DNA from: an uncultured Actinomycetota bacterium
Lineage (GTDB): Bacteria > Actinomycetota > Humimicrobiia > Humimicrobiales > Humimicrobiaceae
Assembly (NCBI GenBank): GCA_964578625.1
Contig: CAZODQ010000004.1
Coordinates: 10,389 to 74,388, forward strand
Length of the DNA stretch: 64,000 bases
Reading direction: 5' to 3'
The translations under genes were made by a program, and so were the position numbers. The notes below the pieces were generated by a model. It had not been told where the DNA came from and did not search any database. It saw only the letters and a program-made list of their open reading frames with translations. Shown here in pieces: positions 9,636 to 56,612 of the stretch; position 1 is the first letter of the stretch; every line of letters begins with the position of its first letter.

Positions 9636-10649
9636 TTGAAGAAGGGTATTATTTTTGTATTTATATTGATTATATCTATTTCTATCCTTTTATTTACTGG
9701 CTGCAGTAAGACATTAGCCAGAGTAGATGGAATTGATATCAAGCAAAATGAAGTGGATGTCTATATGAATTTTATAGAGAGCCAGAGCACAGACGGAGAA
9801 TCAACAAAGAGCGAGGAAGAGTTAAAAACTCTGGAGGTAAATATAATTGATTCACTTATTGTTATAAAACTTCTTGGAAAATATGCAGAAGAAAATAATA
9901 TAACTGTAAGCAGCCAGGAAGTTGATGATCAGTTAAAGATGATAATCGATTCTTATACCTCGGAAAAAGATTTTGAAGAAAATTTAAAAAACATGGGTAT
10001 AGATAGAAATTTTCTAGAAAGTGAACTCAGAAGCCAGATACTCAGGAGAAAGATTTACAATGAAGTCACTACGGATATAATAATAACAGACCAGCAGGCA
10101 AAACAGTATTATGATGATAACAGAGAGACATTATACCTGGTTCCGACCAGAGTTAAAGCAAGCCATATTTTAGCTGTGTTCCCCTGGATAAAAGATGGCT
10201 CTGAAAAGAGCGGAGAAGGAAGAAATGAGGCCCTGAAGAAAATAGAAACTGTTGAGGATGAATTAAAAAATGGTGGAGATTTTGAGGAGTTAGCCAAGAA
10301 GTATTCAGATGATGAATTAACTGCAGAGAATGGAGGAGATCTAGGTTATATAAGTAAGGGGCAGACGGTTGGGGAATTTGAAGAAGCATTATTTTCTTTA
10401 GATGTGGGTGAAGTAAGCGGGATTATTGAGACTGAATATGGATTTCATATTATAAAAGTTACTGACCGCCAGGAAGAACATTACCAGGATTTTGAAGAAG
10501 TTAAGGAAGATATCAAAAAATACCTGTTAGATTCACATAAGTTGAAAGAATATAACGATTTTATTTTTTCATTGATAAAAGATGCAAATATTGAATACTT
10601 TATAGATGTAGAAAGTACTCTTGAACAGAGCCAAGAGGAAAGTGAATGA
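9636..10649 (+). CDS. PpiC-type peptidyl-prolyl isomerase lipoprotein (PrsA/SurA-like)
   Basis: Lipobox LLFTGCSK. Parvulin motifs ASHIL and GGDLGYISKGQTVGEFEEALF. Confidence 0.75.
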   Translation: MKKGIIFVFILIISISILLFTGCSKTLARVDGIDIKQNEVDVYMNFIESQSTDGESTKSEEELKTLEVNIIDSLIVIKLLGKYAEENNITVSSQEVDDQLKMIIDSYTSEKDFEENLKNMGIDRNFLESELRSQILRRKIYNEVTTDIIITDQQAKQYYDDNRETLYLVPTRVKASHILAVFPWIKDGSEKSGEGRNEALKKIETVEDELKNGGDFEELAKKYSDDELTAENGGDLGYISKGQTVGEFEEALFSLDVGEVSGIIETEYGFHIIKVTDRQEEHYQDFEEVKEDIKKYLLDSHKLKEYNDFIFSLIKDANIEYFIDVESTLEQSQEESE

Positions 10650-16672: not shown

Positions 16673-16760
16673 GCCCGAGTGGCGGAATTGGTAGACGCAA
16701 CGGACTTAAAATCCGTTGAGGTTATGCCTCGTGCCAGTTCGATTCTGGCCTCGGGCACCA
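16673..16760 (+). tRNA. tRNA-Leu (anticodon UAA)
   Basis: Acceptor GCCCGAG/CTCGGGC. Anticodon stem ACGGA/TCCGT with loop CTTAAAA. Long variable arm. T arm GCCAG-TTCGATT-CTGGC. Encoded CCA. Confidence 0.9.
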
Positions 16761-16770
16761 TCTTTATATA

Positions 16771-16796
16771 TGGTTCGAATCCTGGCTCCCCAGCCA
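16771..16796 (+). repeat. tRNA 3'-end-like fragment (T-loop GGTTCGAATCC plus hairpin) 10 nt after tRNA-Leu
   Basis: TGGTTCGAATCCTGGCTCCCCAGCCA. Shares TGGTTCGAA...CAGCCA(ATA) with the downstream repeat family. Confidence 0.6.
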
Positions 16797-16941
16797 ATAT
16801 AATTTAAGGCTCTCCCCCAAATTCCGACTCCTAACCAAATTCCGTAAAGTTCACACAAACATATTGCTAATTAATCTCTATTATGATATTAAACATTAAT
16901 CCAAATTTGGGAATAGAAACAATATAAAGGAGGAGAATCCT

Positions 16942-17679
16942 ATGAAAATCGCAGATGGAATCGAAATGCTGAAAATATCAATTGATACCATGGGGAATAA
17001 AGGCATTATCCATCCAACCATACTCTGGGATAAAAGCGAGACTGTACTTGTAGACGCAGGATGCCCAGGTCAGATATTAAAGATACAACAAGGGTTTAAA
17101 AAAGTAGGTTTGTCGTTGTCCAAACTGGATAAATTAATACTAACTCATCATGATATAGACCATATTGGAGGTGCTGAGGATATAGTTAAAAATTCATCTA
17201 GAAATATAGAAGTAATTTCCCATAAAATAGAGAGGGGTTATATACATTTAAAGAAGTATCCAACCAAATTGAAGAAATTAAGATCTCGGCTTCAATCAAT
17301 GCCGTCAGAAATGAAAACAATGTTTGAAAACTTAGAAATTAGTTATAAAAAACATAGAGTATCTGTGAGTCAAACAGTAGTAAGCACAGAAAATCTACCC
17401 TTATGTGGAGGAATAGAGGTAATTTATACTCCCGGTCATACTCCAGGACATATTTCATTATATGTTAAAAAAAGTAAAATCTTGATTGCAGGGGATACAT
17501 TATTTATTGAAGATGGTAAATTAGTGCCACCACCAGAACATATTAATTTTAATAATAAACTTGTACTTAGTTCTTTAAAAAAATTGACACAATATGATAT
17601 TAGAAAAATTATTTGCTATCATGGTGGAGTGTATAGTAGAAATGTAAACAATAGCCTAAGAGAATTGATTGACGGTTAA
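16942..17679 (+). CDS. MBL-fold metallo-hydrolase
   Basis: HxHxDH motif LTHHDIDHIGG. Strong RBS AAGGAGGAG. Confidence 0.75.
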   Translation: MKIADGIEMLKISIDTMGNKGIIHPTILWDKSETVLVDAGCPGQILKIQQGFKKVGLSLSKLDKLILTHHDIDHIGGAEDIVKNSSRNIEVISHKIERGYIHLKKYPTKLKKLRSRLQSMPSEMKTMFENLEISYKKHRVSVSQTVVSTENLPLCGGIEVIYTPGHTPGHISLYVKKSKILIAGDTLFIEDGKLVPPPEHINFNNKLVLSSLKKLTQYDIRKIICYHGGVYSRNVNNSLRELIDG

Positions 17680-17689
17680 ATTATATAAC

Positions 17690-17741
17690 TTGATTATTTC
17701 ATTAATAAGTTGGTTCGAAATTTCGCAACCTGGAGCAGCCA
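17690..17741 (+). repeat. accessory-array hairpin repeat, copy A
   Basis: TTGATTATTTC...TTGGTTCGAAATTTCGCAACCTGGAGCAGCCA. Imperfect palindrome GGTTCGAAA/TTTCG(C)AACC. Confidence 0.8.
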
Positions 17742-17755
17742 AGCTAAATTGGTCT

Positions 17756-18508
17756 TTATTTTATTTTAAAAACATACATTGCCCAATTAAGAGTATCTCT
17801 ACCGTACAACAGATACTCCATTTTTGCTTTTTTTATTTTATTTAATAATTCAGAATTATCCGGGTCATTTGGATTGGCAGTTACATAATCATATGCTGAC
17901 CACCATTGCAAGGTTTCATAATGGTCCCAATCATCATGATTACTTACAAGTGTGTATATACAATTTAATCCTTCTTTTTCACCAACATCTATATTTTTAA
18001 AATGGGAATTAAATTCCTCTTTTTTTATTCCGCTCATTTCAAGATATTCATTATCAGGTTCTTTTAACCAGTAAGGTTCTCCTATAATAATCAGTCCATT
18101 TGGTTTTGTCATTTTCTTCAATGCTTTTATTGTCCCAATAAATCCATTGTAAACAAAGCTAGCACCAATGCACATGGTCAGGTCAAACAATTCATTGATT
18201 TTAGGTACATATTTTGTACCATCCATTTCTAATAATTCAATATCAGAGTCAGGTACTCTTTCGTTTTTCTTTTTTTCGCAATCTTTTATAAAATAAGGTG
18301 AAATATCAACTCCGATGCCGGAAATATTGAATAACTCTGCTAACCTGACCAAAGGTTCTCCTTTACCACAAGCAATATCTAAAACTTTGGAGCCTGGCTT
18401 TAAATTCAATAATGAAAACAAGCTTTCAAATTTACTTTGGCTCATAGGATTACAGATTAAGTGTTTCTTATGGGTAATATCATAATATTTCCAGATATCC
18501 ATTAGCAT
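17756..18508 (-). CDS. class I SAM-dependent methyltransferase
   Basis: Motif I VLDIACGKGE. Confidence 0.75.
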   Translation of the reverse strand: MLMDIWKYYDITHKKHLICNPMSQSKFESLFSLLNLKPGSKVLDIACGKGEPLVRLAELFNISGIGVDISPYFIKDCEKKKNERVPDSDIELLEMDGTKYVPKINELFDLTMCIGASFVYNGFIGTIKALKKMTKPNGLIIIGEPYWLKEPDNEYLEMSGIKKEEFNSHFKNIDVGEKEGLNCIYTLVSNHDDWDHYETLQWWSAYDYVTANPNDPDNSELLNKIKKAKMEYLLYGRDTLNWAMYVFKIK

Positions 18509-18579
18509 ACCTCCAAATAGTTTTAAATCAAGATATTGATTTTAGCAAAATTATTGGAAAAGCAAAAATGTTTTAAGTT

Positions 18580-18630
18580 TGATTATTTCCTTTAAAATTT
18601 GGTTCGAAATTTCGCAACCCGGGGCAGCCA
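18580..18630 (+). repeat. accessory-array hairpin repeat, copy B
   Basis: TTGATTATTTCCTTTAAAATTTGGTTCGAAATTTCGCAACCCGGGGCAGCCA. Confidence 0.8.
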
Positions 18631-18752
18631 ATAACCTATATTTAATAACTCATTCTGAGAGTATGTTCATTTTTATTTCAATCTGTAATAATAGCTGTAA
18701 TAAGATTATTGGAAATATCTTTTTTTAAGATTAAATGGAGGAGAGGTTTATT

Positions 18753-19925
18753 ATGAGTAAATATACCTGGAGTGGTTGGGCAAGTATAGATAGGCCTAAA
18801 GCTTATCTTAGCAACGAGCTTATTGCTATTGGGCAAAATAGTGATGGGCGTCTGGAGGTTTTTGCCATTGGTGGAGATGGAGCCTTGTGGCACACATGTC
18901 AACCAAAACCCAACAAAGGGCCCTGGAGTGGCTGGGCTAATCTGGGTAAGCCAGGTAGCATCTCGGACCTTGGTACTCCTGTTGCAATAAATAATAAAGA
19001 TGGACGACTGGAAGTTTTTGCTACTGGTTATACTGCGGGTACTACTACCTATACGGGGGGCGATCTCTGGCACATATCTCAATCAAAACCTAGTAAAGGT
19101 CCTTGGGCAACCTGGAATAACTTAGGAACACCTTCTAAAAGTGTAAAAATCAACAGACTTGGTGTAGGTCGAAATAGTGATGGTAGACTGGAGGTCTTTG
19201 CTGCCGGAGCTGATGGGGGCTCAATAAGCTCTAAAGAAGGTATCTGGCATATCTGGCAGCAAAAACCAAGCAAAGGACCGTGGAGTGGCTGGGCAAGGCT
19301 GGGTAAACCAAAAGGTGTTAATACGTTGAATAACCGAACTGCTGTAGTAGGCTATAATAGTGATGGCCGTTTGGAGATTTTTGTTACAAAAGGTAGTCTG
19401 TGGCATATGTATCAATCCAAACCCAGCAAGGGACCATGGGTTGGTTGGGGGAAAATGGGTAATCCTAAAAATACTACACTTAACCTAATACCGGTAGCAG
19501 TAGGACAGAATAGTGACGGACGATTGGAGGTATTTGCTGTAGATTATTGGAATGGTGTAGACTACAGCAAAGGTTCCCTATGGCATAGATATCAACCAAA
19601 ACCAGGTAAAGGGCCTTGGATAAACTGGGGTAGTCTTGGGAGACCAGGAAATATACCATTGATACATCAACCCATAGTAGAATGTGATAGTAATGGTTGT
19701 CTTGTGGTATTTACTCTTAACATAGAGAGTACTTTCTGGTATAGATATCAAACAGAACCAAAAAAGGGACCCTGGAGCAAATGGTATAGTCTGGGTAAAC
19801 CACCTGCTTCTAATATCTCAAATATTAATGCTGTTGCAAAAAATAAGGATGGACGGTTAGAGGTTTTTGTTCAAGGAGCTGCTAGTGGAAAAAATAATGT
19901 TCTTTGGCATAACTGGCAGAAGTGA
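18753..19925 (+). CDS. seven-bladed beta-propeller lectin-like repeat protein (tectonin/PLL-like W-repeats)
   Basis: Seven copies of NSDGRLEVFA..G.LWH.WQ.KP.KGPWS.W..LG. ATG at 18753 follows GGAGGAGAGG. No signal peptide. GC visibly higher than in neighbouring genes. Confidence 0.7.
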   Translation: MSKYTWSGWASIDRPKAYLSNELIAIGQNSDGRLEVFAIGGDGALWHTCQPKPNKGPWSGWANLGKPGSISDLGTPVAINNKDGRLEVFATGYTAGTTTYTGGDLWHISQSKPSKGPWATWNNLGTPSKSVKINRLGVGRNSDGRLEVFAAGADGGSISSKEGIWHIWQQKPSKGPWSGWARLGKPKGVNTLNNRTAVVGYNSDGRLEIFVTKGSLWHMYQSKPSKGPWVGWGKMGNPKNTTLNLIPVAVGQNSDGRLEVFAVDYWNGVDYSKGSLWHRYQPKPGKGPWINWGSLGRPGNIPLIHQPIVECDSNGCLVVFTLNIESTFWYRYQTEPKKGPWSKWYSLGKPPASNISNINAVAKNKDGRLEVFVQGAASGKNNVLWHNWQK

Positions 19926-19994
19926 ACTTACTTCTGGAGATAATAAATGAGATATTCTATAGATAAGGTAATATTGTTTATATTCTATAAGCTT

Positions 19995-20133
19995 AATTCT
20001 GGTATAAAAATATCCTTATCTAAACCCAATAAAGCAGTTCTAACTTTGTCCACTGTCCCCAGCAAAGTTCATTAATTTTAATAATTTCCTTTATAATTTG
20101 GTTCGAAATTTCGCAACCCGGGGCAGCCACCTT
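19995..20133 (+). repeat. composite repeat: long module AATTCTGGTATAAAAATATCCT...CCACTGTCCCCAGC with hairpin repeat copy C (20081-20129) inserted
   Basis: Long module is homologous to 21655-21729. Hairpin copy is identical to B in its 32-nt core. Confidence 0.75.
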
Positions 20134-20283
20134 GTACGTATTGGTTCAAGATTCGGGCTCTTCACCAACAACGGGGGTAACCCGTTCCTAACAGCATAGC
20201 GCTTTAATTTTCTATTGTCTATTTTTAATATATAATAAAACCAACTATTTAATGAAGGAGATTTCTAAGAGACAAAATCTGTT

Positions 20284-20505
20284 ATGAAGAAAGTATCTTC
20301 TCTAGAAGATCTGGCAAAATATTCTCTCCGCTGGGTGCTTATGGGTAAAAATGTTATTTGTGTATTTCCTGGAGCCAGCAATACAGATCAGATAATATCA
20401 AATCTTGCTGCGTTTGATATGCCGCCACTTTCTAAAGATCAGATGGAAACTGTAGAAAGAGTATATGAAAATTATATAAAGAATCATGTCCACCTTCACT
20501 GGTAA
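20284..20505 (+). pseudogene. aldo/keto reductase C-terminal fragment (gene remnant)
   Basis: 73 aa LRWVLMGKNVICVFPGASNTDQIISNLAA matches the AKR C-terminal signature. There is an in-frame stop just upstream and no N-terminal barrel. Confidence 0.6.
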
Positions 20506-20551
20506 AACTAAAAAATGTATATTGTAACCAAATTTTTAGAAAGGATTTATA

Positions 20552-21610
20552 ATGGCAGATCTCTTTTCACCAATATCAATCAAGGATGTTGAAATTAAAA
20601 ACCGTATTGTTTTACCACCAATGGGGCGTTTTGGATGGTCTGATGTAAAAGACTTTGTGTCTGATAAACATATAAAACATTATTCTCAAATTGCTGAAGG
20701 GGGAGCTGGACTGATAATTATAGAAGCACTGGCCATAGCCAAAGATGGAAAGCTTTCAAAAGACCAGCTTGGAATATGGTCGGATGACCATATCGATGGT
20801 ATCAGCAAAATAGCAGAAGCCTGCCACAGATATGGCTCGGTAGTTACAGCACAGATACATCATGCCGGGCTGGAAACTCCCATATCGGTATCTAAAATAG
20901 CTTCAGCTCCATCAGACTTTAAGAGGGGTGGCCATTTGGTTGCAAAAGCTTTAAGTGTTGAAGGAATCCAGAAGATTCAAGAGCAATTTGTGGACGCTGC
21001 GGAAAGAGCCAGAAAAGCGGGCCTTGACGGCATAGAGCTTCATGGAGCTCATGGGTACCTTATTGATCAGTTTATGTCTCCAATAACGAATAAAAGAGAT
21101 GATAATTATGGCGGTGATCTGGCTGGAAGATCAACTTTTGCTCGCCAGATAATTGAAATGATAAAAAGCGGTATTGGAAGTGATGATTTTATAATTGGAT
21201 ATAGAATGGGAGGTAATGAACCAACATTGGATGAAGGAAGAAAAATTGCAAAAATTCTTGAAGAAGCTGGAATTGATCTTTTGCATGTATCATCTGGCAT
21301 AGAAGGCGATACAATTCCCAAGCCTCCAACAGATTTTGATTATAGCTGGATTGTCTACTGCGGTATAGAAATAAAAAAACAAGTACGAATTCCTGTAATC
21401 GTGGTGTACAGAATAAAGACTCCGGAACAGGGTAAATACCTTATTGAAAATGACCTGGCTGATTTTGTTGCAGTAGGAAGAGGCCATCTTTGTGATAAAG
21501 ATTGGGCAAATAAAGCAAGAGATAATTTAAAAGTCATTAAGTGCCTGGAGTGTGCAAAATGTTTTTGGTTTGATGAGATTGAAAAATGTCCCAGATATAA
21601 GTTCGATTAG
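20552..21610 (+). CDS. NADH:flavin oxidoreductase, Old Yellow Enzyme family
   Basis: HGAHGYLIDQFMSP and the overall OYE TIM-barrel pattern. Confidence 0.85.
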   Translation: MADLFSPISIKDVEIKNRIVLPPMGRFGWSDVKDFVSDKHIKHYSQIAEGGAGLIIIEALAIAKDGKLSKDQLGIWSDDHIDGISKIAEACHRYGSVVTAQIHHAGLETPISVSKIASAPSDFKRGGHLVAKALSVEGIQKIQEQFVDAAERARKAGLDGIELHGAHGYLIDQFMSPITNKRDDNYGGDLAGRSTFARQIIEMIKSGIGSDDFIIGYRMGGNEPTLDEGRKIAKILEEAGIDLLHVSSGIEGDTIPKPPTDFDYSWIVYCGIEIKKQVRIPVIVVYRIKTPEQGKYLIENDLADFVAVGRGHLCDKDWANKARDNLKVIKCLECAKCFWFDEIEKCPRYKFD

Positions 21611-21654
21611 AGAGCTAATAACAGAAAATTAGGAGAAGTTTTTATTTAAAACCC

Positions 21655-21729
21655 AATTCCGGTATAAAAATATCCTCATTTAACGTTAAAATCTTGGTTT
21701 TAACATTATCCACAGTGGCCAGCCACCTT
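21655..21729 (+). repeat. long repeat module without the hairpin insert (empty-site version)
   Basis: AATTCCGGTATAAAAATATCCTCATTTAAC...CCACAGTGGCCAGCCACCTT is homologous to 19995-20068 plus 20124-20133. Confidence 0.7.
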
Positions 21730-21819
21730 AAAAAGAATTTTTTCTTAACTTTCAAAGGATTTATCTTTATAATCTATTAGAATCAAATTTTAATAAGTTA
21801 GGGTGAATAAGGAGAAGAA

Positions 21820-22341
21820 ATGGAAATAGTGATTAATTCATCTTCAACCAGCTTAGAAATTCCAATCTCATTTATTTTTTGGGGTTTTGTCATTGCCTAT
21901 ATCATTCATATAATAGATGAATCATTAATGGGTGAGACTTTTGTCGGAATGGTTAAGAACCTATTTTGGCCGGAATATCAGTGGAAGCATTTCTTTGGCT
22001 TTAATGCATTACTACTTTCATTAACAATTATATCAATTATATTATTTGAGGTATTTAATGGTTCATGGATAGTTGCACCACTAATATTTGTTTTTTTATA
22101 TACTACGAATGGAATATGGCATTTAGTATCAACTATCATTACCAGGAAATACTCTCCTGGGCTTGCAACAAGTATAATTTACTGGATACTTTTTTACTTT
22201 TTGGTTAGGTATTCTTTTATTCCTAATACTATTCCCACTAGGATTATTGTAATTTCTGCAATCTCAGGGACATTTTTGACGATATTGATGATTTCTTCAT
22301 TTTTTATTTTTAAAAGGAGATTTAATAGGGAGTCTAGATAA
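21820..22341 (+). CDS. integral membrane protein (possible HXXEE-domain family)
   Basis: Four to five TM helices and HIIDES near the N-terminus. Confidence 0.45.
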   Translation: MEIVINSSSTSLEIPISFIFWGFVIAYIIHIIDESLMGETFVGMVKNLFWPEYQWKHFFGFNALLLSLTIISIILFEVFNGSWIVAPLIFVFLYTTNGIWHLVSTIITRKYSPGLATSIIYWILFYFLVRYSFIPNTIPTRIIVISAISGTFLTILMISSFFIFKRRFNRESR

Positions 22342-22361
22342 AAAGATCTTTAATTATAAAT

Positions 22362-22407
22362 AACTCTTTAATAATCTGGTTCGAAATTTCGCTACTTGGG
22401 GTATTCA
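22362..22407 (+). repeat. accessory-array hairpin repeat, copy D (diverged)
   Basis: TTTAATAATCTGGTTCGAAATTTCGCTACTTGGGGTATTCA. Confidence 0.7.
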
Positions 22408-22419
22408 ATAAAATCTTTA

Positions 22420-23340
22420 CTAATTCATGTAGTTTAACTTACTTCCTTTGACCTTCATTTTTAACCTGTAGACTGAGGTAGAAGCAGTAATATAAAGAAT
22501 ATCCCAGTTTTTACCTCCCCAATTCAAATTACTTGTTACTTCCGGTAATTCAATTAAACCTATGTACTCTGCCCGGGGACTGATTACCCATATCCCTCCG
22601 TGACCTGCAACATAGATATTTCCAAGTTCGTCACATTTCATACCATCAGGGGAGCTGCCTTTGGTATTTCTAGAACATATATTATCAAAGAATACACGCC
22701 CTTTTGTGATTGATCCTTCGGGTTTGACATCAAAAGCCCTGATGTGGTAAAGCCTGCTGTCATCTACATATAAGACTTTCTCATCAGGAGACAGGCACAG
22801 GCCATTTGGTTGTGTAAAATCACTTGCAATTAATTCCAATTCTCCGCTTCCAGGATTTATTCGATATATGCCTTGATAATCCAGTTCTTTATTTCTTTCC
22901 AGACCGGAATCTGCCTTTCGGCCGTAAGTAGGATCTGTAAAATATATTGAACCGTTTTTTGCTACAATTACATCATTTGGAGAGTTTAGTTCCTTACCTT
23001 TGTAATGGGAAGCTATTGTTTCTCTTCTACCATCGGGATATTCTTTTACTACAGTACTTGTTATATGTTCGCATACAATAAGATTCCCCTCTTTATCATA
23101 AGTCATACCATTACATTTATTGCTTGGCCTTATTACTTCTTCTATTTTATTCTTTTCACTCCACTTGATTCTTACATTACCGTGTACATCACTAAATAAT
23201 AAAAATTCCTGCTCTTTATTCCATACCGGACCTTCGGTAAAAACAAACCCGGTGGCTATTTTTTCAATTTTATACCCTCTTTCAACTAAGCTATACAGCC
23301 TATTCATATTATCGCTTCTTTCCATTCTTGTATCTCTCAA
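22420..23340 (-). CDS. SMP-30/gluconolactonase/LRE family beta-propeller protein
   Basis: NSPNDVIVAKNGSIYFTDP and GPDG motifs typical of SGL lactonases. Confidence 0.75.
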   Translation of the reverse strand: MRDTRMERSDNMNRLYSLVERGYKIEKIATGFVFTEGPVWNKEQEFLLFSDVHGNVRIKWSEKNKIEEVIRPSNKCNGMTYDKEGNLIVCEHITSTVVKEYPDGRRETIASHYKGKELNSPNDVIVAKNGSIYFTDPTYGRKADSGLERNKELDYQGIYRINPGSGELELIASDFTQPNGLCLSPDEKVLYVDDSRLYHIRAFDVKPEGSITKGRVFFDNICSRNTKGSSPDGMKCDELGNIYVAGHGGIWVISPRAEYIGLIELPEVTSNLNWGGKNWDILYITASTSVYRLKMKVKGSKLNYMN

Positions 23341-23531
23341 TTTTTTTACACCAGCACTAAATAAGTATTTATATGTCTCTATCTTAAGAAGTTATATTAA
23401 TATTGTCTATAGGATTCAGGTGTAAAAATTATAGATACGATCTTAAATTAAGCAATTGTAAAGAACCTTTAAATAATGAATAATAAACTAAAATATGCAA
23501 TAATAAGCAACATAAATTAGCTTATTGAAAA

Positions 23532-23957
23532 GTGATCAATATGAACAATATTAAAAGATTCGGTGTTTCAATTGAGGATGATTTGTTAGAAAAGTTTGAT
23601 ATTTATATCAAATCAAAGAATTATACCAACCGCTCGGAAGCACTGAGAGACTTGATTAGAAAGGAATTTGTTGAAGAACAATGGATTAAGGCAGATAAAA
23701 ATGCCGCAGGTGCAATAATTTTAGTTTTTGACCATCATAAAAGAGAGCTTATGGATAGCCTGGTAGATATCCAGCATGATTATCATAAGATCATTATTTC
23801 AACACAGCATATTCATCTTGATCACAGGATGTGTCTGGAAATAATAGTAGTCAAGGGAAAAATAAATAAGATCTATCAATTGGAATCTAAGCTGAAGTCC
23901 ATAAAGGGTGTTAAGCATATTTCTCTTTCCAAGTCTACACTGGCAGAAGAAATATAA
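23532..23957 (+). CDS. nikR: nickel-responsive regulator NikR
   Basis: Ribbon-helix-helix N-terminus (RFGVSIEDDLLEKFD...NRSEALRDLIRKE). C-terminal H/C-rich metal-binding domain (HHKRE...H...H..C). Confidence 0.75.
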   Translation: MINMNNIKRFGVSIEDDLLEKFDIYIKSKNYTNRSEALRDLIRKEFVEEQWIKADKNAAGAIILVFDHHKRELMDSLVDIQHDYHKIIISTQHIHLDHRMCLEIIVVKGKINKIYQLESKLKSIKGVKHISLSKSTLAEEI

Positions 23958-23964
23958 AGATATA

Positions 23965-24531
23965 TTATCTTGGTACCCCTATCCATCTTGGAGTTTTATT
24001 TAAATACTCTTGGTAAGTATTCCCGAATTTCTTTTTACAGTAAAGTTCTTCGGAATCAGCAACAATATTTACTAAGATCATGAATACAGTTGAAATCATC
24101 AAAATAATCCATGAAGCTGCAGCCATACCTATTCCCATGAGGGCTAAGAAATGAGAAAAATATATTGGATGTCTGGAATAACGATAAATTCCTTCAGTCA
24201 CCGGTTTACCTGGAGGAATGGCAATAAAATTAATACCTGCGGTTATAAATAGTGCGAGTGCCAGCAAGAAAATAACAAGACCCATATAAAACCAGGGTGT
24301 CCCCAGTTTAAGCGGTAAAAAAATAGAGTATAAAAATGCTAAATAGGTAATTATAGTAGCAATATAACCTGTTAATTCTACTCTTTTACCTGTCTTCATA
24401 TCAGAAGGATTACCAAATCTCTTGTAAGCTCTTCTGTTAATTAAGAATATTGAATATGGTATAAGTAAAAAACAGGCTGAAAAAACCCAGGCGTTCCATA
24501 CACCAATTTTAAATACTGGTATAAGTTCCAT
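23965..24531 (-). CDS. isoprenylcysteine carboxyl methyltransferase (ICMT/PEMT) family membrane methyltransferase
   Basis: RYSRHPIYFSHFLALMGIG motif and multiple TM helices. Confidence 0.7.
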   Translation of the reverse strand: MELIPVFKIGVWNAWVFSACFLLIPYSIFLINRRAYKRFGNPSDMKTGKRVELTGYIATIITYLAFLYSIFLPLKLGTPWFYMGLVIFLLALALFITAGINFIAIPPGKPVTEGIYRYSRHPIYFSHFLALMGIGMAAASWIILMISTVFMILVNIVADSEELYCKKKFGNTYQEYLNKTPRWIGVPR

Positions 24532-24762
24532 TTTCTATCTTCTTATTAAATCACTTTAAATTATAATACTATAATAGGAATACATATGTATAGGATAATA
24601 AAGAAAAGATTGGAGTGATTCATTATTACACTCATTCCGGCTGTTTTCTTCTATTATTTTAAAAAATACCAGAGATAAAATTTTTTAAATATTTGTTTTC
24701 ATTTTTGGCGCTATATGAATATAATGTTGATTAAGATTACCAATTTTTGAAAGGAGACTTCA

Positions 24763-25020
24763 ATGATTGCATCTAAGGATCAAGGTCCAAGCGGACTCGC
24801 CATTGCGGCACTGATAACAGGTATTTTGGGGATGTCGATTGTACCGGTTATACTGGGCGCGATTGATTTTGGAAAAATAAAAAAAGGCGAAGCAAGCCCA
24901 GCAGGCAGGGGCTTTGATATTGCGGGTATTGTTCTTGGAGCTATAGGGATAGTAGTATGGTTAATAGTTGCTATCGTTATGGCAGTAGTAGGGACAGGTT
25001 TGCTTTATAATCTTTATTAG
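24763..25020 (+). CDS. small membrane protein, hypothetical
   Basis: 85 aa with two hydrophobic helices. RBS GGAGACT upstream. Confidence 0.4.
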   Translation: MIASKDQGPSGLAIAALITGILGMSIVPVILGAIDFGKIKKGEASPAGRGFDIAGIVLGAIGIVVWLIVAIVMAVVGTGLLYNLY

Positions 25021-25136
25021 AAAAATTTTAGTGCGTGATTATAGAATCATTTATGCACAGGTAAGTATATTTAGGCCCCATATAAAGTGGGGCTTAAATA
25101 TTTAGAAAAGTTTTTTAAATCTTTATTAAGTTCTAT

Positions 25137-26021
25137 ATGGAAATACCAGTAAAAAAACTAAAAAGTGATTTTAAATTACCGGTGTTTGGGTTTGGAGTAT
25201 ACAGAATGGGTGGCGTCTTAACCCATGACCCCGAAAATGATGATGAAAAGGATATATCTGTTATAAAGAGTGCATTAAACTTGGGTGTTACTCATATTGA
25301 TACTGCGGAAATGTATGCTCAGGGTTATAGTGAGATATTGGTGGGTAGAGCAATTAAAGGATATGAGAGATCAAAATTAATTATCGCTACCAAAGTTTCT
25401 CCTATGAATCTGCATTATGATGATGTCATAAGTGCGGTAAAAGGCAGTCTTGAAAGGCTGAATACCGATTATATAGATTTATACATGGTACACTACCCCA
25501 ATTTCAAAATACCTATTGCTGAAACTATGAAAGCCATGGATTATATGATGGAAGAAGGCTTTATTAGGTATATAGGAGTCAGCAATTTCAGTCTTCACCA
25601 ATTTAAAGAAGCACAGAGATATACAAGAAATAAAATAATTTGTAATCAGATACCATATAGTCTGATAAACCGTAAGTTTCAGGCTGATGGTTTTATAGAT
25701 TATGCAAAAGAAAATGAGGTAATGATTGCTGCGTGGAGGCCGATTGAAGGGGGTATGTTATCAAAGAAAGGAATAGAATTACTGGATAAAATCTGCCGCA
25801 GGTATAACAAAACACCCGGCCAGATAGCCATTAACTGGCTTATCAGCCAGAAAAATGTAATAACTATCCCTGGCTCGAGGAACATAGAACACCTTAAAGA
25901 AAATCTTGGGTCTGTAGGCTGGAAGCTTACACTGAAAGATATAAAAATGTTAGATGATGATTTCCCGCGAAAAGATTTTTCTTCTATAGCTGATGATTAC
26001 TGGCATGAAATATTAAAATAG
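25137..26021 (+). CDS. aldo/keto reductase
   Basis: AKR signatures (GVTHIDTAEMY, LERLNTDYIDLYMVH, IPGSRNIEHLKENL). Confidence 0.85.
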   Translation: MEIPVKKLKSDFKLPVFGFGVYRMGGVLTHDPENDDEKDISVIKSALNLGVTHIDTAEMYAQGYSEILVGRAIKGYERSKLIIATKVSPMNLHYDDVISAVKGSLERLNTDYIDLYMVHYPNFKIPIAETMKAMDYMMEEGFIRYIGVSNFSLHQFKEAQRYTRNKIICNQIPYSLINRKFQADGFIDYAKENEVMIAAWRPIEGGMLSKKGIELLDKICRRYNKTPGQIAINWLISQKNVITIPGSRNIEHLKENLGSVGWKLTLKDIKMLDDDFPRKDFSSIADDYWHEILK

Positions 26022-26073
26022 GTATACATCTGAATTTATTCAGTAAGTCATTAGTTTGAAGGTGTACCGGCTT

Positions 26074-26589
26074 TCAGTTATTTTTTTTTGTCTTTTTGAT
26101 TTTAGCGGAGGGAGCCTTTTTTGTTTTCAGGGCAGGTGGTTTTCTAGGAGTAGATTTACTCTTTATCGTTTTTTCTTTTACAGCTGGTTTTTTCCTGGTG
26201 GTAGATTTTCCTCTTTTAGCAGGCATCCTTTTGATCTCTTTTTTAGCTGCAGCTTTTTCCTTTGGCCTGGTTTCTTTTACGGGTTCTGATTCCTTTTTTG
26301 TTGAGGTGATTTTTTTTAAAATCTTTGCTGCAGAATCAAGATCTTTTCTATATTGGGTATCATCTGCAGGATTGAAGAATTTTTTTCCTCGGTGATATTT
26401 GGTATCTGTAAAGGTCAATTTTTTAAAATTATTTACATCAATAATAAAATTAGAAGGGAGAGTTTTTAAAAGATTTACGGTACTTGCATGCCAGTTTTTA
26501 AACCTGAGATCCCTGCTGCTTAAATCCATGATTGTTTTTATTTCCTTAAGTCTTTTAAAAATCTTGTCCAAGAGTTCTTTTTCCATCAT
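26074..26589 (-). CDS. histone H1-like lysine-rich protein (N-terminal globular domain plus K/A/P-rich tail)
   Basis: C-terminal 90 aa are KKPAVKEK...PRKPPALKTKKAPSAKIKKTKK. Confidence 0.5.
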   Translation of the reverse strand: MMEKELLDKIFKRLKEIKTIMDLSSRDLRFKNWHASTVNLLKTLPSNFIIDVNNFKKLTFTDTKYHRGKKFFNPADDTQYRKDLDSAAKILKKITSTKKESEPVKETRPKEKAAAKKEIKRMPAKRGKSTTRKKPAVKEKTIKSKSTPRKPPALKTKKAPSAKIKKTKKNN

Positions 26590-26777
26590 TAGTTTATATA
26601 TTTGTATAATTTAATCTGAATTTATTTTATCGTATTCTATATTCATTATGAATTTTGAGTATAATAGATTAAGTGCATTTTTTCAATTACTAAGCTGATA
26701 AGGAGTTTATTGTTAAAAATAAAATAGACAGTCTTAAAAAATACCTGCTTGAGATTCCTAATTTTCTTTCCATTTTT

Positions 26778-27914
26778 ATGGTACCTGTATTCTTTGTAAC
26801 TGCAAGTCATATGCTTTTAGAGATGAGTAGGACTACCGGTTACGGTATTGGTGACTTAAGCTTAATTTTTACTTTTTTTAATGCTGGACTGATTGTAGGA
26901 CAGTTAACCTCTATATTCTACAATCGCAAATTTTCAAAACTTAATATAATTCTGACAGGATATGTAATTATTATTCCTTGTTTGATATTGCTAATGGTAG
27001 TTAAAGATTTATATCTTTTTTATATTCTTTATTGTCTTATTGGTTATATTGCAGGAGTGATATGGCTTCAGGCAACCAAATATATTTTGGAAAATGATAT
27101 TAAAAATAAAGACAGGTTAATTACCATATTCTTAAATTTCTATCCTATGGGACATATATCAGCTCCTTTTATTGCTTCGTATTTGATTAACAATGGTATT
27201 AACTGGAGGTATTCCTACGTTATTATGATTTTTTTAGTAATTGTTATATTTATCCTCTATTCTATTTTAAAAAGAGGTAGGGGAGCGAAGATATATTATA
27301 AAGAGGAAGAAAGACTGCAGTTTAGGAAAATTTTTTTTAACCGTAGGTTAAATATAATCTTCATTTTAGGATGTATCCCACTTACACTTTATGCTATTTC
27401 TGAAACGGTTATTTCTACCTGGGTATCCCCATTTCTGCAGAGTGTGAGATTTTTTAATATTCAGACAGCCGGTCTTACAGTTTCTATATTCTGGATAGCT
27501 ATAATTGTAGGCAGGACTATAGTAAGTATTATAGCAGGCAGGTTTAAAACAAATTATATAATCCTAGCTCTATCCGTTATTGCAATAGTCCCTGTGATTG
27601 TATTTATTTATTTAAAATCTACTTATGCTGCTATGATTACGATAGCCTTTGCAGGCCTGGGTTATTCAGGAATAATTACCCTGGGGATTTCTTCGGCGAG
27701 CACAGTTTATGAAAAAGGTAGAGGAGTCCTTGCCAGTATTGTTTTTGCGGTAGCAAATGCCGGTATTTCTGTTGCTCCTTTTATAACCAGATTTGTCTCT
27801 CAGTTTAGTATGAATTTGTCCATCGCGGTTGCTCCTATTTTTATGGCTTTACTGTCCCTATTTATAATAGGTAAGAATTTTTTTGAAAGCACTTCAGGGG
27901 AAAATCGAAATTAA
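26778..27914 (+). CDS. MFS-type transporter
   Basis: About 11 to 12 TM helices in two halves with a central charged loop. The first helix may start upstream at a non-ATG codon. Confidence 0.55.
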   Translation: MVPVFFVTASHMLLEMSRTTGYGIGDLSLIFTFFNAGLIVGQLTSIFYNRKFSKLNIILTGYVIIIPCLILLMVVKDLYLFYILYCLIGYIAGVIWLQATKYILENDIKNKDRLITIFLNFYPMGHISAPFIASYLINNGINWRYSYVIMIFLVIVIFILYSILKRGRGAKIYYKEEERLQFRKIFFNRRLNIIFILGCIPLTLYAISETVISTWVSPFLQSVRFFNIQTAGLTVSIFWIAIIVGRTIVSIIAGRFKTNYIILALSVIAIVPVIVFIYLKSTYAAMITIAFAGLGYSGIITLGISSASTVYEKGRGVLASIVFAVANAGISVAPFITRFVSQFSMNLSIAVAPIFMALLSLFIIGKNFFESTSGENRN

Positions 27915-27972
27915 AATCAAAAGATGATAACATATAGTTTGGAAAATTAATCCTATAATAACAGGAGACATT

Positions 27973-28413
27973 ATGAAAATTGAAAGTACAGCCTTTAAAA
28001 ACAATGAGTTGATTCCACAAGAATATACCTGTGATGGGAAGAATATAAACCCTCTGCTGTTGATAAGTGATGTGCCTGAAAATGCGAAGAGCCTGGTGCT
28101 TATAGTGGATGACCCTGATGCTTCAGCTGGAACCTGGGTACACTGGACGGTGTGGAATATAGATCCTGAGGTTACAGAAATACCCGAAAACAGCGTACCG
28201 GAAGGATCGGTAGAAGGAGTAACAGATTCCGGCAGGCCCGGATATTCAGGCCCCTGTCCGCCACCGGGAACACACCGCTATTTTTTCAAGCTTTTTGCGC
28301 TGGATACAACCCTGAACCTAAGTCCTTCTATAAGAGCAGTAGATATTGAAAAAGAGATGGAAGCCAGTATTCTTGCAGAGGCACAGTTGGTAGGACTGTA
28401 CAGCCGCCAGTGA
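27973..28413 (+). CDS. YbhB/YbcL family phosphatidylethanolamine-binding protein (PEBP)
   Basis: PPPGTHRYFFKLFALD signature. Confidence 0.8.
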   Translation: MKIESTAFKNNELIPQEYTCDGKNINPLLLISDVPENAKSLVLIVDDPDASAGTWVHWTVWNIDPEVTEIPENSVPEGSVEGVTDSGRPGYSGPCPPPGTHRYFFKLFALDTTLNLSPSIRAVDIEKEMEASILAEAQLVGLYSRQ

Positions 28414-56480: not shown

Positions 56481-56514
56481 GCAGCAGCCCCAGGTATTTT
56501 AATTTCGAACCATA
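56481..56514 (-). repeat. diverged tRNA-3'-end-like element (reverse orientation) related to 16767-16796
   Basis: Reverse complement reads ATATGGTTCGAAATTAAAATACCTGGGGCTGCTG. The first 12 nt are identical to ATATGGTTCGAA at 16767. Confidence 0.4.
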
Positions 56515-56612
56515 TTTTGAAGGAAAAAAGCGATTAAGCACTTAATCCAAAATTTTAATTAATTGAAAAAACTTCATAGCTCTAAATCTTTTAGTGTCAT
56601 AATATTGAATAA

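Follow-up and report, generated by a model that had tools for sequence, protein, structure and literature searches.

Putative att-Type Sites Ending in CAGCCA in a tRNA-Leu-Anchored Cassette Array of an Uncultured Actinomycetota Bacterium

Introduction

The 64,000-nt stretch of DNA analyzed here (positions 10,389 to 74,388 of the forward strand of contig CAZODQ010000004.1, assembly GCA_964578625.1, from an uncultured Actinomycetota bacterium of the Humimicrobiaceae; hereafter the window) harbors two copies of a long module, at 20 and 21.7 kb, only one of which is followed by a short unit carrying a hairpin. This raises the question of whether the hairpin unit entered a pre-existing site as a small mobile element or recombination product, as had been claimed in the original prediction from the sequence alone, or belongs to a different kind of repetitive organization. 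The arrangement of the window and of its relatives inclines us to the view that the region at 16.7-22.4 kb holds, behind a tRNA-Leu gene, five small accessory-gene cassettes stacked as a polar array, and that the modules at the cassette boundaries are att-type recombination sites. Among the relatives, the arrays are polar and anchored at tRNA genes, their sites end in CCA and are interchangeable, the joints lie at CAGCCA, the units are discrete, and cassettes are gained and lost between related loci; what goes beyond this anatomy is comparative inference.

Results and Discussion

The Long Module and the Hairpin Unit

The letters of the window at 20-21.7 kb were found to match the earlier description. 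The 22-nt motif at the 5' end of the long module occurs exactly twice in 64 kb (expected 0), as does its 3' motif, and a profile built from either module A or module B (M_A and M_B, Table 1) retrieved the other copy with E ~1e-17, which confirms that the two modules are homologous. The core of the hairpin unit, GGTTCGAAATTTCGCWAC, is present in four copies (17712, 18601, 20100, and 22378; expected 0.07), all on the plus strand and all confined to 17.7-22.4 kb. Three of the four hairpin units (~60 nt) end sharply in GGGGCAGCCA; in the fourth, erosion has left GGGGTATTCA. In copy A, 60 nt (59 in the earlier count) lie between ...CCCCAGC, which ends at 20063, and CAGCCACCTT, which starts at 20124, whereas copy B reads GGCCAGCCACCTT uninterrupted and lacks the hairpin unit. 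The adjacency of module A and the hairpin unit was also observed in an independent Logan contig (L070, 1523 nt), which extends from the 18.6-kb to the 20.1-kb hairpin core. The locus is represented in sample SRR14802572.

The short CAGC repeat framing the hairpin segment had been described as a direct repeat. The right-hand CAGCCA, however, is the own end of the hairpin unit, since the 17.7-kb and 18.6-kb copies carry it as well, with no long module in their vicinity. As all the site classes described below stop at CAGCCA, the CAGC is the common terminal core of both modules, conserved at the 3' ends of hairpin units, long modules, and bare as well as real tRNA-Gln ends, and not a target duplication. 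Similarly, copy B is not the empty allele of copy A but another copy of the long module at a different cassette boundary. The CCTT following CAGCCA in both copies proved to be a chance match within a loose T-rich cassette start, T being the commonest base at +2 to +4 after CAGCCA among the cassettes; copy A, unlike copy B, runs on into a GC-rich module.

Site Classes and Their Resemblance to the tRNA-Gln 3' End

A search with the hairpin core identified 68 stretches of GTDB genomes, and a stricter pattern identified at least 120 metagenome contigs. In a pooled set of 182 loci (individual loci are designated L with a number), the hairpin unit (H) and the long module (M) were located by profiles, and a third class (Q) by a pattern for bare tRNA-Gln ends. 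All relatives are metagenome-assembled genomes (MAGs) or metagenome contigs, the taxonomic labels of which may be unreliable; approximately 60 of the 68 genome stretches belong to low-GC MAGs labeled Actinomycetota or Atribacterota, along with one archaeon and one Chloroflexota. The pooled loci contain at least 358 H, at least 149 M, and at least 31 Q sites, the last number including the ends of real tRNA-Gln genes. The 3' terminus of tRNA-Gln is CAGCCA, and this motif marks the limit of conservation in 272 of the 358 H sites, 103 of the 149 M sites, and 30 of the 31 Q sites in the 182 loci.

The H sites consist of an AT-rich left arm, ...TTAATTCCTTTAAAAAT, followed by TGGTTCGAAATTTCGCAACCCGGGGCAGCCA, and the M sites end in TGGTTCTAAC...TGGCCAGCCA. 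The 3'-terminal 31 nt of H (TGGTTCGAAATTTCGCAACCCGGGGCAGCCA) can be aligned with the equally long terminus of M (TGGTTCTAACWTYGTCCRCWRTGGCCAGCCA). Q is the true 25-nt segment from T-loop to CCA of the tRNA-Gln genes in L018, L021, L040, and L057; the Q of the window is identical at 22 of 25 positions to the 3' ends of these genes, and the class is present in 11 further genome loci. The window Q also resembles the hairpin unit (TGGTTCGAA...CAGCCA) and the ends of modules A and B (...CCCCAGC and ...GGCCAGCCA, respectively). The right halves of all three classes extend from a T-loop-like GGTTC through CAGCCA, which suggests that they copy or mimic the T-loop-to-CCA end of tRNA-Gln; only GGTTC...CAGCCA is common to tRNA-Gln and to H and M, which are 5-6 nt longer. 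A rarer fourth class (L type) combines an H-type left arm with a right half mimicking tRNA-Leu (...CAGTTCGACTTTRCACTGCTCAGGGGCACCA). A tRNA-like fold of M was considered and rejected, as no T-arm or acceptor pairing was visible in the copies of M inspected by eye.

The module into which copy A runs was designated G (CCTTGTACG; ...GGCTCTTCACCAACAACGGGGGTAACCCGTTCCTAACAGCATAGCGCTTTAA). In 13 other loci, it immediately follows the CCA end of an H, M, Q, or real tRNA-Gln. No Rfam family matched the G module, which might form a further arm of the recombination site or else a small RNA or leader. Several other modules recur directly after CAGCCA at cassette starts, namely, module K (CYGTGCA...AAAGTGACCAACTTCCC), module P (TTAAGACA, then after ~15 nt TATCTTAA, forming a small palindrome), a module ending in ...TTTGGTATTCC, and TTCCGGTATGTATGTCATACGG. 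Such cassette-start modules were seen in many loci (e.g., L023 6050-6086, L048, and L066).

Joints Between Units

The joints were mapped by all-against-all comparison of the loci, in which 28 informative block starts were located exactly at CAGCCA (16 behind H, 9 behind M, and 3 behind Q) and the ends of shared blocks clustered at the 3' ends of sites. For example, one cassette is placed behind H in L002 and behind M in L054, with identity from CAGCCA on, and one 96-nt H unit stands behind Q in L082 and behind M in L063. The left neighbor of the G module is H in the window, a real tRNA-Gln in L040, and M in L060. The block common to cassette 2 of the window and to L059 begins with AGCTAAAT, directly behind CAGCCA. 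Comparison of L061 with L114 revealed two extra cassettes (~2.7 kb) in L061 at the same place; since the flanking H variants differ up to ...ACCCGGGG versus ...ACTTGGGG, this joint is placed within the last 10 nt, GGGGCAGCCA. The precision of the joints, together with the short core that is all the site classes have in common, points to site-specific joining and not to homologous recombination.

The original prediction could be followed up by comparing filled and empty copies of the long module. An H site is present within 100 nt behind M in 57 of 149 copies and absent in the remaining 92. The H units behind M fall into length classes of 63-64 nt (4 units), 76 nt (1), 88-91 nt (31), and 95-99 nt (21), each with its own conserved sequence and starting exactly after CCA. 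H thus behaves as a discrete cargo-less unit with consistent junctions. The fixed lengths of cargo-less H units are 63, 76, 88-89, and 95-96 nt; cargo-less M units are 119-134 nt long, and cargo-less units were also found behind Q and, in L114, directly behind a real tRNA-Gln. Across genomes, the junctions always lie at the module-terminal CAGC or CAGCCA, so that the hairpin segment is not simply a variable internal region.

In L094 and in L023/L040, a 76-nt unit is joined as CAGCCA followed by AGTTAATCATAAAGTTCATT..., and in L094, M...GGCCAGCCA is directly followed by AGTTAATCATAAAGTTCATTAATTTTAATAATTTCC.... The copy in the window is of the type found in these loci, but 12 nt (CAAGTTAATCAT) have been lost across its joint, so that M_A is without its final CA and the unit without its initial 10 nt. 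The CAGC...CAGC frame of the window is therefore a remnant of a CAGCCA...CAGCCA frame. Hence, the insertion interpretation of the original prediction is partly supported: the hairpin unit is separable, occurring alone approximately 300 times, whereas the 59-nt insertion as delimited there is not the native unit.

Polarity and tRNA Anchoring of the Arrays

The sites of a locus are all on one strand in 179 of 182 loci. The spacing from one site 3' end to the next has a median of ~1.2 kb (10-90% range, 0.6-2.6 kb), usually with one open reading frame (ORF) between sites that ends close to the next site. The genes have the same orientation as the sites in 53 cases and the opposite orientation in 33 (38% inverted), and genes facing either way argue for a role of the sites at the DNA level and against one at the transcript level.

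Among the 26 loci that hold a tRNA gene (Gln, Arg, Leu, Asn, or Glu), the tRNA is located immediately upstream of the array and co-oriented with it in 25, and all of these array-anchoring tRNAs were called intact by ARAGORN. Three tRNA-Gln arrays are situated behind ispE-ksgA and one behind gltX; the conserved housekeeping genes in front of these arrays mark them as chromosomal hotspots. Likewise, the gene order trkH-ftsB-ppx-tRNA-Leu followed by an array, as found in the window, recurs in L078, L169, and L193 with different cassettes, and the cassettes of the window (methyltransferase; PLL propeller; aldo/keto-reductase fragment with the old yellow enzyme (OYE)-type oxidoreductase; HXXEE protein) recur in other arrays.

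Secondary Structure and Transcript-Level Roles

DNA folds of H and M, computed for both strands, ranged from -1.5 to -5.8 kcal/mol with z-scores of -1.1 to +0.6. H forms only a local 7-bp hairpin (-3.7 kcal/mol, z = 0.2), no better than shuffled sequences, the stem of which contains two G-C pairs per arm and a bulge. The hairpin was rejected as the functional core, as about 10 copies break the stem (TTTCGC to TTTCAC) without compensation, and one possible compensatory pair was seen (CTAAATTTAG, L053). Whole-region RNA folds of modules A and B were likewise no better than shuffles. Rfam searches at gathering and at permissive thresholds returned tRNA-Leu as the sole match and no family for H or M; Rfam contains no attC family.

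The assertion that the hairpin unit is not a static terminator held, given its ~300 solitary occurrences and the lack of a terminator-like call on H or M. Consensus scans for promoters and terminators gave counts at the level of shuffled sequence, with none on H or M, and both roles were discarded; for an intrinsic terminator, the weak bulged stem and the 38% of neighboring genes in opposite orientation were additional grounds. The units also do not represent miniature inverted-repeat transposable elements (MITEs), as terminal inverted repeats are absent and the flanking CAGCCA is not a target duplication. An origin from phage or plasmid attP sites was dismissed as well, since searches of IMG/VR with the H and M cores gave only chance core matches and no full units.

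The modularity of these sequences calls to mind the BIME/BOX-type mosaic intergenic repeats. According to this explanation, H and M would have structural or regulatory functions at mRNA ends, at promoters or in nucleoid binding, and would offer short patches of homology to ordinary recombination and to the exchange of genes in variable regions, from which the cassette-like pattern would result. H, M, G, K, P, and other units do indeed occur in many combinations, composites of M and H recur as fixed pairs, sites differ while the cargo is conserved, and one block boundary falls inside M. We nevertheless judge this explanation unlikely. The orientation of the sites is independent of the flanking genes, H and M are not terminator-like, promoter- and terminator-like sites occur at the frequency of shuffled sequence, and neither a stable structure nor an Rfam match was obtained. 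Moreover, 25 of the 26 loci with tRNA genes have such a gene at the start of the array, genuine partial tRNA-Gln ends occur among the H and M sites, and the joints lie in a 6-10-nt core of otherwise dissimilar classes, which is too short for homologous recombination.

The general layout is, in turn, reminiscent of an integrase-less integron cassette array (CALIN), with H and M serving as attC sites: the sites are ~60-75 nt long, equally oriented, and separated by 0.5-3 kb that mostly contain a single accessory gene, the ORFs terminate near the next site, and the T-rich cassette starts at +2 to +4 (e.g., GTTAGAAC and CTTAAGAC) loosely resemble GTTRRRY. The details of the sites make this very improbable. 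An end-to-end imperfect palindrome is missing, base pairing between the AT-rich left arm and the GC-rich right end is impossible, and the folding energy equals that of shuffles. The RYYYAAC...GTTRRRY frame is absent, and the mapped joint is between CAG and CCA, not between G and TT. The array heads are tRNA genes and not intI-attI, and in 38% of cases the gene runs opposite to the sites. No IntI-like match was obtained in the window or the loci, which alone is not decisive, since a CALIN needs no intI.

Proposed Mechanism and the Search for a Recombinase

Each cassette ends in one of three interchangeable sites, Q, H, or M. In the model favored here, DNA units, with cargo or without, would be joined directly to the CCA of either a tRNA gene or a site already in place, and the CCA-ending site of each unit would regenerate the target, allowing head-to-tail stacking. 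H3 would accordingly represent a cargo-less H unit placed behind M_A; the left copy of CAGC would be the end of the target and the right copy the end of the unit itself, and a later 12-nt deletion would have blurred the left joint of H3. The circle junction under this model would read ...GGGGCAGCCA followed by AGTTAATCAT, or ...CAGCCA followed by the cassette start. The catalyst is most likely a tyrosine recombinase acting in trans, with the crossover presumably in or next to CAGCCA; this enzyme family is favored because targeting of tRNA 3' ends and a core of 6-8 bp are typical of it.

The ORFs of the window and of all the loci were searched by phmmer with IntI1, XerD, lambda Int, Cre, Hin, and IS608 TnpA as probes. 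In the 120 metagenome loci, one convincing Xer-like fragment (L155), one very weak partial match (L100), and one serine recombinase (L191) were detected. The gene fragment in L155 (1-630) codes for a small Xer-like tyrosine recombinase and is convergent with H, its end lying ~110 nt from the CCA end. The same arrangement of gene and H, including a conserved spacer, was found in L201 (3746-4660), where the Xer-like gene is located at the end of a five-site array beside NikA/MobC-like mobilization genes.

Several observations weigh against the att-type interpretation. No recombinase gene is consistently associated with the arrays among the ORFs of the window and the loci; with the IntI1, XerD, lambda Int, Cre, and Hin probes, neither the 64-kb window nor any of the 68 genome loci yielded one. 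The 11 other contigs with relatives of the L155 protein (L198-L200 and L202-L209) have no H or M site, so that a link between this protein and the sites is tentative. A cargo-less H stands behind M in 57 of 88 cases and behind H in 4 of 133, a bias that free insertion behind any CCA end does not predict. The duplicated block of L023/L040 begins inside M, between TATAAAAAY and ATCC, and not at the CCA end, and the window and L059 have strongly divergent H sites behind the methyltransferase cassette though the cargo is ~90% identical. In addition, deletions between direct repeats could have arisen through ordinary homologous recombination, and misassembly at the repeats is possible, the relatives being MAG or metagenome contigs. 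The preference for M, the block start inside M, and the uncoupling of site and cargo leave room for the mosaic repeats discussed above and for single-strand transposition.

The latter explanation regards H, M, and Q as ends of non-autonomous single-strand (HUH-type) transposons, either IS200/IS605 derivatives or IS91/helitron-like elements, inserting 3' of a fixed short target, CAGCCA, which is recreated by the element's own end. Elements of the HUH type have a subterminal hairpin ~11 nt from the 3' end and produce no target duplication. Comparable features were observed here: the hairpin GGTTCGAAATTTCG(C)AACC, with one bulged base, is followed by 11 nt up to the end of the unit, units are inserted precisely behind CCA, nothing outside the shared motif is duplicated, the sites are strictly polar, and the small units are of fixed length. 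IS200-type transposases also exist in these genomes; an IS200-type element in L006 (2187-2727, minus strand) encodes a Y1 transposase and has its own GC-rich hairpins. This element is, however, merely inserted in the AT-rich left arm of an H; its hairpins are unrelated, its TnpA is the sole one found, and no matching transposase was detected. The hairpin of H is weak and without compensatory change, M and Q have no comparable hairpin, and no left-end hairpin is common to the units. Single-strand transposons are usually biased relative to replication; the orientation of the sites does not follow GC skew (36 versus 26 loci), a count that is uninformative on replication-strand bias. Taken together, an HUH-type origin appears improbable to us.

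ORF clustering of the genome loci revealed no recurrent family other than cargo.

Comparison With Known Systems

Tandem accretion of integrative elements at tRNA genes has been described for the tycheposon islands of Prochlorococcus (bioRxiv 10.1101/2020.12.28.424599). Similar to these islands, which are seeded at the 3' ends of several different tRNA genes (bioRxiv 10.1101/2020.12.28.424599), the arrays have a full-length tRNA at the head and partial tRNA 3' ends directly repeated throughout, newer units would push older ones inward, and the cargo is accessory metabolic. They differ in that the units are 0.06-3 kb in size, mostly contain a single gene or no gene at all, and lack an integrase and a replication module; most of the sites are not true partial tRNAs but 60-75-nt mimics (H and M) with a common AT-rich left arm and 5-6 extra nt, and there are dozens of sites per array. 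Judged by the features of tRNA islands, an element at the 3' end of an intact tRNA was found in 25 of the 26 tRNA-holding loci. Direct repeats of the tRNA 3' segment are represented by the 25 nt of Q, which are identical or nearly identical to tRNA-Gln, and in H and M by GGTTC...CAGCCA only. A unit-borne integrase is lacking, one convincing Xer-like fragment by an H having been found in ~190 loci in addition to the related L201.

With integrons, the arrays have in common the small, mostly single-gene cassettes each ending in a ~60-nt site, the strict polarity of the sites, the presence of cargo-less cassettes, and the occurrence of the same cassettes in different orders across genomes. In contrast to integrons, they have no attC-type palindrome and no GTTRRRY/RYYYAAC frame, the joint is at CAGCCA, a tRNA gene takes the place of intI-attI at the head, genes are often inverted, and no IntI was found. 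The system thus shares the landing pad with tRNA-seeded islands and the cassette scale and polarity with integrons, the two nearest described systems, but lacks defining features of both, namely, an element-borne integrase in the first case and attC and intI in the second.

Integrative mobile elements exploiting Xer (IMEX) at dif, such as CTX/TLC, are comparable in that integration regenerates a usable site at one end and permits tandem stacking without a recombinase of their own; the sole convincing recombinase beside an H is also Xer-like. The present sites, however, are not 28-bp dif-like, and there are many arrays per genome, at tRNA genes and not at the replication terminus. Palindrome-associated transposable elements (PATEs), derived from IS200/IS605, and repetitive extragenic palindromes (REP/BIME) are likewise short, non-coding, modular units with a subterminal hairpin and neither terminal inverted repeats nor target duplication. 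Unlike these, the units described here are found only in direct orientation within tRNA-anchored arrays and flank cargo, and the hairpin structure is not conserved.

A literature search yielded no paper that holds the core sequence and none linking integrons or attC to Atribacter. It is conceivable, and tentatively proposed here, that the arrays constitute a distinct, undescribed gene-capture system analogous to integrons and built on mimicry of tRNA ends. In a clade of low-GC uncultured sediment bacteria (MAGs labeled Actinomycetota or Atribacterota), cassettes with one gene or none would enter site-specifically, immediately behind the CCA of tRNA genes, and the 60-75-nt pseudo-tRNA-3'-end site of each cassette (H, M, Q, or L type) would renew the target. 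There would be dozens of cassettes per array and several tRNA loci per genome, with the recombinase encoded elsewhere.

If the modules are recombination sites, they would represent a second, independent solution to the problem solved by integrons, with single accessory genes stockpiled and shuffled at a fixed chromosomal address and the invariant end of tRNA genes serving as the landing pad. This would explain part of the gene exchange in poorly known subsurface and sediment lineages as well as the assembly breaks at these repeats, as in contigs L001 and L070, which end in H cores. Profiles of H, M, and Q would then allow annotators to find hypervariable cassette arrays missed by integron finders, and the system would point to a recombinase whose portable core, CAGCCA, is unusual and very short.

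Organization of the Window Array and Other Observations

The array of the window comprises the features listed in Table 1. The DNA of cassette 2 is ~90% identical to a cassette of L059, which is reversed there too, and the cassettes upstream of the two are unrelated. Homologues of cassette 3 are present in L084 and L144; its propeller gene is built of seven repeats, each 153-183 nt long, which the repeat scan assigned to families D1 and D2. The gene pair of cassette 4 was also found in L192, with amino acid identities of 79% (aldo/keto-reductase fragment) and 90% (OYE); the G module is absent there, and the cassette lies directly behind M. The 73-aa fragment may be a long-standing remnant that travels with the cassette, or it may function as a mini-protein. 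Cassette 5 is placed directly behind tRNA-Leu-Q-H in L185 and also occurs in L151 and L014.

Table 1. Coordinates of the tRNA-Leu gene, sites, and cassettes of the array (positions of the 64-kb window).
Feature	Position	Strand	Description
tRNA-Leu(UAA) gene	16673-16760	+	Called by ARAGORN and Rfam; anchor of the array, its CCA end being the first junction
Q unit, cargo-less	16761-16796	+	11-nt AT-rich left arm TCTTTATATAT and bare 25-nt tRNA-Gln 3' end GGTTCGAATCCTGGCTCCCCAGCCA (16772-16796)
Cassette 1	16797-17675	+	ORF 16942-17679 (+), predicted metallo-beta-lactamase fold (HxHxDH motif); between the ends of Q and H1
H1	17676-17741	+	Hairpin-unit site; ends GGAGCAGCCA; nhmmer 54.7 bits
Cassette 2	17742-18564	-	Methyltransferase gene 17756-18508, on the strand opposite to the sites
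H2	18565-18630	+	Hairpin-unit site; ends GGGGCAGCCA; nhmmer 67.6 bits
Cassette 3	18631-19994	+	PLL-type beta-propeller gene 18735-19925; Pfam PF26607
M_A (module A)	19995-20063	+	Long-module site, AATTCTGGTATAAAAATATCC...TGTCCCCAGC; cut at ...CCCCAGC, final CA missing
H3	20064-20129	+	Cargo-less hairpin unit; 76-nt class minus the first 10 nt; aligned with L094 and L023
G module	20130-20207	+	GC-rich, 75-80 nt; opens cassette 4
Cassette 4 cargo	20208-21654	+	ORF 20284-20505 (73-aa aldo/keto-reductase C-terminal fragment) and OYE-type flavin oxidoreductase 20552-21610; Pfam via L001
M_B (module B)	21655-21725	+	Complete long-module site, AATTCCGGTATAAAAATATCC...GTGGCCAGCCA; ends GGCCAGCCA; no H unit behind
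Cassette 5	21726-22341	+	HXXEE-domain membrane protein gene 21820-22341; Pfam via L001
H4	22342-22407	+	Hairpin-unit site, eroded; ends GGGGTATTCA; nhmmer 40.4 bits; last recognizable site of the array

Beyond H4, no further site was found up to 34 kb. The genes at 22408-28000 (SGL lactonase-like, DUF1295/ICMT-like, ORF 26074-26589, and MFS transporter) have homologues inside the arrays of other loci, and no H, M, or Q site is left among them; this stretch may represent an older section of the array that has eroded. At 56501-56531 on the minus strand, far from the array, the H profile gave a weak partial match (20 bits, E = 2.5e-4). Outside the window, an 85-nt intergenic insertion flanked by TTATA was observed in L159 (968-1052). 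The insertion, which L123, L130, and L189 lack although they are otherwise near-identical, seems to be a MITE-like element in its own right. Two collinear repeat pairs of the window (42549-42668/43723-43842 and 43121-43176/44295-44350), each with an offset of 1174 nt and an identity of 70-73%, resemble paralogous genes in tandem.

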